Below, one piece after another: positions 58,112 through 64,000 of a DNA stretch of 64,000 nucleotides. The notes under the pieces were generated by a model. That model made no database searches and was not told the DNA's origin. It saw only the letters and a list, made by a program, of their open reading frames with translations. Origin of the DNA: an uncultured delta proteobacterium (GTDB lineage: Bacteria > Myxococcota_A > Polyangia > Polyangiales > Houyiibacteriaceae); the NCBI GenBank assembly GCA_963699755.1, contig CAVOVB010000002.1, forward strand, positions 128,001 to 192,000, in the 5' to 3' direction. The stretch's first letter is position 1. Every line of letters begins with the position of its first letter. The translations under genes and the position numbers were made by a program.

Positions 58112-59398
58112 ATGGGGTTAAGAATCTTCTTGGTCTGTGCGGTCCTCGTGGCCGCGTGCGGGGAGTCGGGGAGCAGTACAGGCGCCGGCGGCGACGCGGG
58201 TTCGGCGGGGATGGCTGGTGCAGGAGGCATGGTTGGCTCGGGCGGCATGGTTGGCTCGGGCGGGACGCTTGGCTCGGGCGGGACGCTTGGCTCGGGCGGG
58301 ACGCTTGGCTCGGGCGGGACGCTTGGCTCGGGCGGCGTTGGCGGGGGGAGCGGGGCCCCAGCTTTGAACGTCACGCCCTACATCTCCGGTCTCGACAACC
58401 CCTGGGACATCGCTTGGCTTCCGAATGGAACGGTGCTGGTCACCGAGAGGCCTGGTCGACTCAACGTGTACGTCAACGGCGTGGACGCAGCTCCGTTCAT
58501 CATCGCCCCGACAGACCTCGTCGCAAACAGCGAGGGCGGGTTGTTGGGCCTCGAGGTCGATCCCGACTTCGCGAACAACGGCTATGTCTACGTCTGCATG
58601 GCCTCGAACGCAGACATGTCCACCGACGTGCGCCTGGTCCGCTACGAGCTTGAGAGACCCAATGGCGATGCCTTGATCGCGCGTGCCGACATCGTGACCG
58701 GGATGCCGTACAGCTCGGGAAGACACAGCGGGTGTCGGCCTCGCTTCGGACCCTACGGCTACCTTTGGGTCGGCACTGGGGACGCCGCAATCGGGACGAC
58801 ACCCCAGGACGACAACTCCCTCGGCGGGAAAGTGCTTCGAATCGATCGAAACGGCAACGCTGCACCCGGCAACCCGGGCGGCTACAAGTGGTTTTCCAAA
58901 GGCCATCGCAACGTTCAAGGCGTGGCTTTTCGCGCCTCGGACAATCTGGGCGTCTCGGCCGAGCATGGGCCTTCGCGGGATGACGAAATCAATCTCCTGG
59001 TGGCGGGCAACTTCGGCTGGGACCCGGCGCCAGCGGGCGGGGGCCCAGGCTACAACGAATCGGTTCCGATGACCGATATCGCGGCGTTTCCAGATGCGGT
59101 CGAGGCGATTTGGTCGAGCGGTGTGCCTACGCTTGCCCTCTCGGGCGCGACCTTCCTCGAGGGAAGCGCATGGGGCAACTGGGACGGGGTACTTGCCGTC
59201 GCGACCCTCAAAGCGACGCACATTCACATCTACTTCGTAGGCACCCAAGGTGAGGTCACCGACGATTTTCGCGTGATCGAGAACGAAGGACGTCTTCGCT
59301 CGCCGCGACAAGGCCCCGACGGCCTCCTCTACATCACCAACGATGGCAGCGGCGCCGGTGGCCAAGTGCTTCAGGTGACCCCCGTCACCTCACCTTAG
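58112..59398 (+). CDS. PQQ-dependent sugar (glucose/sorbosone) dehydrogenase-like lipoprotein
   Basis: VAAC lipobox, PWDIAWLP.G, TERPGR, GGLLG, H.G.R..FGP, GHRNVQG, EHGP..DDEIN. Confidence 0.88.
   Translation: MGLRIFLVCAVLVAACGESGSSTGAGGDAGSAGMAGAGGMVGSGGMVGSGGTLGSGGTLGSGGTLGSGGTLGSGGVGGGSGAPALNVTPYISGLDNPWDIAWLPNGTVLVTERPGRLNVYVNGVDAAPFIIAPTDLVANSEGGLLGLEVDPDFANNGYVYVCMASNADMSTDVRLVRYELERPNGDALIARADIVTGMPYSSGRHSGCRPRFGPYGYLWVGTGDAAIGTTPQDDNSLGGKVLRIDRNGNAAPGNPGGYKWFSKGHRNVQGVAFRASDNLGVSAEHGPSRDDEINLLVAGNFGWDPAPAGGGPGYNESVPMTDIAAFPDAVEAIWSSGVPTLALSGATFLEGSAWGNWDGVLAVATLKATHIHIYFVGTQGEVTDDFRVIENEGRLRSPRQGPDGLLYITNDGSGAGGQVLQVTPVTSP
58226..58333 (+). repeat. In-frame 18-bp tandem repeat, 6 copies
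   Basis: 2 x GGCATGGTTGGCTCGGGC followed by 4 x GGGACGCTTGGCTCGGGC, encoding G(M/T)(V/L)GSG. Confidence 0.95.
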
Positions 59399-62329: not shown

Positions 62330-63232
62330 ATGACGATGGTTTCCGAGATATTCGACCGGTCCAAGTGGACCGAGGTTCGAGGCTTCGAGCTCGAAGACAT
62401 CACCTATCACCGTGCAAAGGAACACGGCACGGTCCGCATCGCCTTCAACCGACCCGAGGTGCGTAACGCGTTTCGTCCGGGCACGGTCGACGAGCTCTAC
62501 CGGGCGCTCGACCATGCGCGGCAGAGCTCCGACGTAGGCTGCGTGCTCCTCACGGGCAACGGGCCTTCTCCCAAGGACGGAGGCTGGGCGTTCTGCTCGG
62601 GCGGCGACCAGCGCATCCGGGGCAAGGACGGCTACAAATACGAAACCGATTCCGCCGGGGAGATCGATCCGGCGCGCCTCGGTCGTTTGCACATCCTCGA
62701 AGTGCAACGCCTGATCCGTTTCATGCCCAAGATCGTGATCGCAGTCGTCCCGGGTTGGGCGGTAGGCGGCGGACACAGCCTGCACGTCGTCTGCGACCTG
62801 ACCATCGCCAGCGAGGAGCATGCTGTCTTCAAACAGACCGACCCGGACGTCGCGAGCTTCGATAGCGGCTATGGCTCCGCCCTTCTCGCGCGACAGGTCG
62901 GTCAGAAGAAAGCCCGTGAGGTGTTCTTCGTGGGCCTCAACTACAGCGCCCAAGAAGCTGCCGAAATGGGCATGGTCAACGCCGTGGTGCCCCATGCCGA
63001 GCTTGAGGATTTCGCCCTCGGCTGGGCCAAAGAGGTCAATTCGAAGAGCCCGACCGCCATGCGAATGCTGAAGTTCGGATTCAACATGGTCGACGATGGC
63101 CTCGTCGGGCAGCAGCTGTTCGCAGGTGAGGCCACCCGCTTGGCCTACGGAACCGAGGAGGCTCGAGAAGGCCGCGACGCCTTCCTCGAAAAGCGTCCAC
63201 AGGATTACAAAAAGTTCCCCTGGCACTACTGA
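62330..63232 (+). CDS. menB: 1,4-dihydroxy-2-naphthoyl-CoA synthase
   Basis: RPEVRNAFRP.TVDEL, AFCSGGDQR.RG, GGGHSLHVVCD, SFD.GYG, QQLFAGEATRLAY. Confidence 0.96.
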   Translation: MTMVSEIFDRSKWTEVRGFELEDITYHRAKEHGTVRIAFNRPEVRNAFRPGTVDELYRALDHARQSSDVGCVLLTGNGPSPKDGGWAFCSGGDQRIRGKDGYKYETDSAGEIDPARLGRLHILEVQRLIRFMPKIVIAVVPGWAVGGGHSLHVVCDLTIASEEHAVFKQTDPDVASFDSGYGSALLARQVGQKKAREVFFVGLNYSAQEAAEMGMVNAVVPHAELEDFALGWAKEVNSKSPTAMRMLKFGFNMVDDGLVGQQLFAGEATRLAYGTEEAREGRDAFLEKRPQDYKKFPWHY

Positions 63233-63335
63233 GCCAAGGCTATTGCCAACAAAAAGTCCGATCTGGGGTACACTTCTCCAATTGGACCCAAACCAAAAAC
63301 GTGCCAATTGAGCACATCGGAGAACGGAGCAAGTC

Positions 63336-63794
63336 ATCTCAAGCAAGATATTCGTAGGGAACCTCAACTTTGGCACGACCGACGAAGAGCTACGTGAGCT
63401 CTTCGGGGAGATCGGGGAGGTCGTTGATGTTCACATTCCCAAGGATCGCGAATCCGGACGTCCCAGAGGGTTCGCATTCGTCCGGTTCGCGGCTGAAGAG
63501 CATGCCGCCCAAGCCGTCGAGAAGTTCCACGGACGCGAAGTCGGCGGACGCGAGCTGCGGCTGGACATCGCGGAGGACCGGCCCCGGCCCCCACGTCAGC
63601 GGCGCGATTTCGGCGGCCCGCCACCGGACCGCTACAATCGCGGTGGCGACCCGGGCGGCGGAGACTTCGATCGCGGCGGCAGTTACGACCGTGGCGGCGG
63701 CTACGAACGCGGCGGCGACGGTCGCTCGTTCGAGAAGCCGAAGAAGCCCAAAGGTAGTCGCCGAGGTCTGCGCGGCAAGAAGCGAAGCCTGTAG
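63336..63794 (+). CDS. RRM (RNP-1) RNA-binding protein with RGG-rich and basic tail; probable non-canonical ATC start
   Basis: Manual translation: (I/M)SSKIFVGNLNFGTTDEELRELFGEIGEVVDVHIPKDRESGRPRGFAFVRF...KGSRRGLRGKKRSL*. RNP2 (IFVGNL) and RNP1 (RGFAFVRF) are intact. In-frame TGA at 63309; GGAG 6 nt before ATC. Confidence 0.88.
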   Translation: MSSKIFVGNLNFGTTDEELRELFGEIGEVVDVHIPKDRESGRPRGFAFVRFAAEEHAAQAVEKFHGREVGGRELRLDIAEDRPRPPRQRRDFGGPPPDRYNRGGDPGGGDFDRGGSYDRGGGYERGGDGRSFEKPKKPKGSRRGLRGKKRSL

Positions 63795-63861
63795 CGGCCT
63801 GGTCCTCGTGGGGCGTATTGCGCCCCTCGAGCAGTGCCCACAGCTTCTGTGGCTCAAAAAA

Positions 63862-63891
63862 TCTCGGGCGAGGCGTTAGCCCCGCCCGAGA
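63862..63891. terminator. GC-rich hairpin downstream of the RRM gene (possible terminator)
   Basis: TCTCGGGCG...CGCCCGAGA stem, preceded by an A-run and followed shortly by a T-run. Confidence 0.5.
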
Positions 63892-64000
63892 GCCCGTTTT
63901 TCTTGTACCCCCAAGGAGTGTGAACGCGATCTACCGTGTCGAAGGGTCGCTGGAGAGCCGTCGACAGTCGTACGGTAAAGCTCCGAAGCCACCGTTGTCA

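Follow-up and report, generated by a model that had tools for sequence, protein, structure and literature searches.

An RRM RNA-binding protein gene of a marine myxobacterium with a probable ATC start codon, conserved as ATC or ATT in its close relatives

This study identified, in a marine myxobacterium, an intact gene for an RRM RNA-binding protein that has no normal start codon and is most likely translated from ATC, or from ATT in many of its relatives. The gene lies near the end of the window, which is the whole stretch of 64,000 nucleotides analyzed here. In the clade in which the gene is linked to menB, the 45 distinct orthologues carried ATC (28) or ATT (17) at the start position and none carried ATG or ATA. 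Based on comparative sequence evidence, we are nearly certain that ATC at 63336 is the start codon. It further appears likely, on balance, that this weak start makes the output of the gene depend on start-codon scrutiny by initiation factor IF3, as in infC. The features of the locus are as follows.

62330..63232, plus strand: menB (1,4-dihydroxy-2-naphthoyl-CoA synthase; NF006186 above cut-off), upstream of the RRM gene
63309..63311, plus strand: in-frame upstream stop TGA
63326..63329, plus strand: Shine-Dalgarno (SD) core GGAG, 6 nt 5' of ATC
63336..63794, plus strand: RRM protein gene of the KGSRR-tail subfamily, 152 codons (frame, Pfam, alignment)
63336..63338, plus strand: ATC, putative initiation codon (ATC/ATT column in orthologues, ATG/GTG in sister copies)
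63339..63365, plus strand: codons 2-10, nucleotides near-invariant in the genus clade
63348..63560, plus strand: RRM domain (Pfam PF00076; RNP2 63348-63365, RNP1 63465-63488)
63582..63749, plus strand: Gly/Arg/Asp-rich linker of variable length (alignment), predicted to be disordered (low pLDDT in relative P0084)
63750..63791, plus strand: basic C-terminal tail KGSRRxxRxKKRSL, the subfamily hallmark (invariant alignment columns)
63792-63794, plus strand: stop codon TAG of the RRM gene

The frame comprises 160 codons from stop to stop and contains zero in-frame ATG, GTG or TTG codons, and the default ORF list of the window shows nothing in it. The initial annotation had described this lack of start codons together with GGAG placed 6 nt before ATC, and both were confirmed in the window sequence. 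It had also named an ATG hidden by an assembly error as a weak point; contigs from four runs in four studies cover 63336-63338 with ATC, no ATG and no difference listed, and one matching contig had 0 differences across 63285-63384, in a check that used contigs, not raw reads, and for which the source sample may itself have supplied the best run. An assembly error was rejected because the contigs of four studies agree at the start codon, and a pseudogene because the RRM frames are intact and their divergence is synonymous.

The 45 distinct sequences of the menB-linked (main) clade represent its pooled and de-duplicated loci. Among close relatives, namely Myxococcota/Polyangiales MAGs including SG8_38, the loci with a 5' end showed ATC (19) or ATT (10) in 29/29 cases (30 loci, including that of the window), and those of the genome collection showed ATC (26) or ATT (17) in 43/43 cases (44 loci); the two sets overlap, and one locus in each lacks its 5' end. 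The ATG that would have been expected at the Met1 column under a recent loss of the gene, as the initial annotation had considered, was thus present in none of the orthologues of this clade. On the DNA tree of 43 sequences, the third base of the start codon switched six times between C and T and never to G or A. Of the 29 four-fold degenerate sites in the same genes, 28 showed G and not one was confined to C/T. Since the third base of the start codon is never G, the comparison indicates that the main clade avoids ATG at this position and that the weak codon is maintained by selection. The menB gene stood immediately 5' of the RRM gene in 43/43 loci of the genus, an adjacency that is not kept outside the genus.

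Sister copies bear on the role of this column. In the second copy found in the genus, the start column held ATT in L028, L029, L031, L033 and L035, ATG in L032, L036, L037 and L110, and GTG in L111; therefore, the ATC/ATT (ATY) column is taken as the initiator column. Similarly, the two tail-less RRM paralogues of the window genome have ATG in the same register. An in-frame stop occurs at codon -2 in 29/45 main-clade sequences, mostly as TAA, which leaves only GTC at codon -1, the ATY codon itself or downstream codons as possible starts; in related strains, this TAA arises from C->T at 63330, where the window has CAA (63330-63332). Serine at codon 2 was encoded by both TCN (73) and AGY (6) among the 87 ATY members, which argues that the constraint on the protein begins right after the ATY codon. 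Outside the clade, ATT made up 33/42 of the start columns versus 72/264 of the internal Ile codons, so that ATY in the start column does not behave as ordinary Ile. Taken together, the comparison supports the initial annotation's proposal of ATC as the initiator well, with ATC/ATT in 45/45 orthologues and ATG/GTG in the same column of sister copies.

The sequence upstream of the start was also distinctive, since GGAG or GAGG at a spacer of 5-9 was present in 45/45 main-clade sequences and in 37/42 other ATY members (82/87 of all ATY-start RRM genes), compared with 11/21 ATG/GTG members with the tail and 4/31 plain ATG-type RRM genes. The base at -1 was C in 79/87 ATY-start genes. The sequences behind these SD and -1 counts are related, so that the counts overstate their independence.

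A C-terminal KGSRRxxRxKKRSL tail distinguishes the RRM subfamily to which the window protein belongs, and the initial annotation, which treated the start as a feature of a single gene, proved too narrow in scope, since the ATY start was found to be a family-wide and cross-phylum trait. Across all loci, the distinct sequences with ATY comprised the 45 members of the main clade and 42 others (33 ATT, 9 ATC); ATG/GTG stood in 21 sequences that have the tail and in 31 plain RRM genes, and 5 sequences were out of register. The 87 non-NTG starts, read from DNA, were ATT or ATC only, with no ATA and no CTG. The metagenome scan covered the best 80 of at least 593 loci, of which 66 were read by the motif script and 14 were missed. 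In a distant set of 119 proteins, 62 tail proteins had been extended upstream by gene callers, and 57/62 of them had Ile in the initiator column; another 50 begin at this column with M or V, and one distant database protein (P0157) has Leu there. The proteins with Ile in the column include named Binatia and Thermoanaerobaculia (Acidobacteriota) proteins. As judged from these sequences, the ATY trait spans at least three phylum-level groups, namely Myxococcota, Binatia and Acidobacteriota. Among 401 Myxococcota genomes searched by alignment or tail pattern, with the top candidates scored per genome, nearly all members of the subfamily came from the family of the window; the exceptions were a GTG-start relative from the same order and a single further pattern match. 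One ATT relative belongs to another family of the same order.

In a tree of 91 de-replicated RRM domains, ATY starts were located on many deep branches within the tail subfamily; the start state changed about 11 times (bootstrap range 10-12; shuffled mean 30), and a further analysis gave a similar picture. This tree is based on 83 columns, has many open forks and unsettled bootstrap support, and its outgroup does not fall on one side of a branch. The pattern fits an old ATY start followed by several reversions, with the ancestral state not fixed by the tree. The 21 ATG/GTG members and the approximately 11 state changes suggest that some lineages can do without the ATY start.

Concerning the product, Pfam RRM_1 (PF00076) matched residues 5-75 with 84.4 bits and an E value of 5e-24, passing the gathering cut-off of 20.7. 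RNP2 (IFVGNL) occupies residues 5-10 and RNP1 (RGFAFVRF) residues 44-51, and the intact aromatic residues of these motifs suggest that the protein binds single-stranded RNA. The structure model, made for relative P0084 and not for the window protein, predicted the beta-alpha-beta-beta-alpha-beta fold of an RRM with pLDDT over 90 and a disordered remainder; in a Foldseek search, the P0084 model matched RRM structures including Porphyromonas PG1 (7jly, 43% identity). The Bacteroides-type family NF058537 (Rbp_regulator) scored 76.8 bits, below its cut-off of 100.

The second copy of the genus was located after a DEAD-box helicase gene in 9/10 loci, usually in the order RRM, DEAD-box, tail RRM, and in 8/10 loci no more than about 20 nt separated its start from the helicase stop. 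Because the protein combines an RRM with a basic tail and the second copy sits in a DEAD-box operon, the product may be an RNA chaperone or a ribosome-associated factor. This DEAD-box operon is an indirect link to cold-inducible chaperones, the "cold-inducible" names in JGI being automatic labels. The RRM, DEAD-box, tail RRM operon was observed in part of the genus (L031:1433-3197, L032, L033, L035, L037, L110 and L111), and in several such operons the helicase apparently starts at a GTG that overlaps the stop of the first RRM gene. In the window genome, a first RRM gene with a downstream DEAD motif was present near 801206 of contig C2, with no tail RRM within 3 kb.

A parallel with infC is suggested by the genomes themselves. 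The infC gene of the window genome is located on another contig (C11, minus strand), with GAGGAG, a 6-nt spacer and ATC at 66333, and has 187 codons. The infC loci of the genus and order showed an SD with an in-frame ATC in 27/29 cases, with one ATA and one ATG, and in the genus the GGAG-N6 spacing was the same as in the RRM gene, often with the same AGTC before ATC. Set beside infC, the RRM gene has, by comparison, an AUU/AUC initiator, a well-spaced SD in the 82 of 87 ATY members and apparent selection on the weak codon in the main clade, with the codon lost in 21 subfamily members; its product is not IF3. As described in the accessible part of PMC5499595, IF3 accepts AUG, GUG and UUG and rejects AUU/AUC complexes, which is the basis of infC autoregulation, and this discrimination of AUU/AUC is reported to be weaker in the cold. 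Immature 30S subunits escape the IF3 check, according to the accessible text of PMC6868393.

Because a strong SD is combined with AUU/AUC, and this codon is kept against ATG and is never ATA or CTG in 87 members, dependence of the output on IF3 scrutiny is the reading that we favor. In such a mechanism, the strong SD would recruit the 30S complex and fMet-tRNA would decode AUC/AUU, with IF3 dissociating most of these complexes, so that little RRM protein would be made in the normal state. When scrutiny slackens, owing to low free IF3 per 30S, immature 30S or possibly low temperature, more RRM protein would be produced. The supply of this protein, if it serves as an RNA chaperone or ribosome-associated factor, would then track the state of the translation machinery.

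Several observations weigh against tuning by IF3. The 21 distinct tail members with ATG/GTG do without such a codon, and the pairing of a strong SD with a weak codon may be no more than compensation. No neighborhood was common to the lineages, and apart from the DEAD-box operon that holds the second copy, no conserved neighborhood with translation genes was detected (75 of 127 neighbor frames scanned). The cold link is ambiguous, as the accessible text of PMC6511846 gives an approximately 3-fold rise in the IF/ribosome ratio of E. coli after cold shock, which would repress such a gene. On the separate question of start-codon choice in the window genome as a whole (5319 frames), an SD with ATC near coding onsets was 1.04-fold enriched and ATT 0.73-fold, versus 3.5 for ATG and 1.7 for GTG, in a weak test in which TTG was also 1.0 and infC was unflagged and which excludes only a frequent use of ATC. 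A general relaxation of start-codon choice in the genome was rejected on this weak test, since ATC was not enriched.

Alternatively, the ATY codon may act as a constitutive limiter of dosage that keeps a dose-sensitive, basic RNA-binding protein scarce, as in E. coli pcnB, with sensitivity to IF3 being incidental; we regard this as possible, though on the unlikely side. In E. coli, pcnB is the second gene with an AUU start and is called "translationally limited" in the title of a paper cited by PMC5499595, which itself gives near-cognate starts 1-2% of AUG output. Consistent with this, all five second copies with ATG/GTG occur in genomes that also have an ATY copy. However, a weak SD would equally give low output, as would TTG, CTG or ATA as the start codon; the ATY members instead use only ATT/ATC, and their SD (mean -6.7 and -9.2 kcal/mol) is as strong as or stronger than that of ATG-type RRM genes (-5.3 kcal/mol); moreover, ATG/GTG is tolerated in 21 members.

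A broader form of the IF3 reading, toward which we are doubtful and which we put forward as speculation, would regard the KGSRR-tail RRM proteins as ancient, cross-phylum, translation-linked RNA chaperones within an "IF3 regulon". The ancestral AUU/AUC start would sense initiation fidelity or immature 30S and would raise a ribosome-binding helper when quality control falters.

In the genus clade, codons 2-10 hardly varied in nucleotide sequence, with for example TCA in 40/41, AAG in 41/41, ATA in 40/41, GTA in 41/41 and CTC in 41/41 sequences, among them the rare codons ATA and GTA, and the predicted local structure around these codons was weak. These near-invariant nucleotides could reflect self-repression, in which the RRM binds its own frozen initiation region and the slow ATY start makes initiation repressible. 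GC-rich genes often have AT-rich 5' codons, and outside the clade the ATY start is kept but the frozen stretch is not; self-repression is therefore improbable. The Bacteroides RRM proteins offer a precedent, as they are cold-induced and repress their own expression, partly post-transcriptionally, in the accessible text of PMC13370968, which is silent on start codons and IF3. A hairpin hiding the SD was rejected, since the local folding energy was no stronger than in ATG-type genes. No Rfam element was matched near the RRM gene at E up to 0.5 (10 loci), and the Sigma-70 scan of 63100-64000 gave no promoter for the gene.

Finally, it is highly improbable that ATY is an ordinary Ile codon, with translation beginning upstream, at GTC (-1) or at ATA (codon 5), or that the gene is a pseudogene or an assembly error. 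In favor of another start, GTC is invariant (45/45) and ATA nearly so in the main clade, and residue 5 is the first residue of three NCBI proteins (P0001, P0012 and P0016). Against it, these codons lie 3 nt and 18 nt from the SD and neither is kept outside the clade (GCC, ACC, ACG, CCC or GTC varying freely at -1, and Val or Leu at codon 5), residues 2-4 are constrained as amino acids, the sister ATG falls exactly on the ATY column, and intact frames, synonymous divergence and agreeing independent contigs speak against decay or error.

Downstream of the RRM gene, on the opposite strand, a separate element was observed.

63854-63966, minus strand: small-RNA-like element of about 113 nt, convergent with the RRM gene, conserved and single-copy
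63972-63977 and 63996-64001, minus strand: promoter-like -10 and -35 of this element, 18-nt spacer

The element is predicted to form a hairpin at its 5' end, in which compensatory changes occur, and a terminator hairpin; it also has an anti-SD-like CUCCUU motif and had no Rfam match. It was present in 43/47 genomes of the genus and in 0/26 other genomes of the family; in G008 and G014 it is not linked to the RRM gene. Regulation of the RRM gene by this opposite-strand RNA was rejected because its pairing with the initiation region was weaker than that of 97% of 3328 start regions of the genome. Based on the weak pairing and the lack of linkage in two genomes, the element was treated as separate. 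The top raw duplex scores, obtained with no control, included the start region of a presumably htpX-like gene.

Two other loci may be recorded. A RiPP-like cluster is located just past the end of the window (G000:C2 about 192500-194700; L085:3164-4567), with a short Cys-rich repeat peptide and a radical SAM protein, identified by search in the L085 homologue; the frames after the radical SAM gene are, by eye, presumably PqqD-like and kinase-like. The gene at 58112-59398 presumably encodes a lipoprotein whose N-terminal linker carries GGTLGS tandem repeats and precedes a glucose/sorbosone dehydrogenase-like domain, as judged by eye.

The unusual start has consequences for annotation. Of the 42 database proteins of the menB-linked clade, one has the correct start, 14 are extended and 27 are truncated, so that public databases hold wrong N-termini in 41/42 entries, many of them without RNP2. 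The initial annotation had stated that standard gene callers miss the gene; the wrong starts bear out the underlying concern, yet the gene is usually mis-started and not always missed, and only 7/43 complete orthologues lack any in-frame NTG.

Selection is known to maintain AUU/AUC starts in very few bacterial genes, those in the cited papers being infC, pcnB and Deinococcus dnaA. An ATY subfamily across Myxococcota, Binatia and Acidobacteriota suggests that IF3 scrutiny may regulate more than IF3, and the natural ATT, ATC, ATG and GTG alleles of one gene are material for testing why such starts persist. Literature listings, whose coverage leaves out most subscription papers and supplements, yielded no account of a bacterial RRM gene that starts at a non-AUG codon.

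Among myxobacteria, dsg of M. xanthus has an AUC start. Like the Bacteroides proteins RbpA-C, Porphyromonas PG1 (7JLY) and cyanobacterial Rbp, the window protein combines one RRM, in which RNP1 and RNP2 are present, with a Gly/Arg-rich tail, and unlike them it has the distinct KGSRRxxRxKKRSL tail; a non-AUG start is not described for the Bacteroides proteins in the accessible text of PMC13370968. Other ATY-start genes include infC and pcnB (accessible part of PMC5499595) and Deinococcus dnaA, for which N-terminal proteomics showed an ATC start with Ser2 exposed (accessible part of PMC2830850). Similarly to E. coli pcnB (AUU) and Deinococcus dnaA (ATC), the RRM gene is a non-IF3 gene with an ATY start; those two occur in narrow lineages as far as the accessible text of the cited papers goes, whereas the ATY start of the RRM genes spans a subfamily in at least three phylum-level groups. 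The closest comparison is with infC, which, in the accessible part of PMC5499595, likewise has an AUU/AUC initiator behind a good SD that is conserved across lineages, here in the same GGAG-N6-ATC layout. In contrast to infC, the RRM product is not IF3, so that a direct autoregulatory loop is absent; the RRM start toggles between ATC and ATT, whereas infC in these genomes is almost always ATC; and the RRM subfamily has apparently reverted to ATG/GTG in several lineages, its dependence on IF3 being probable by analogy with infC.
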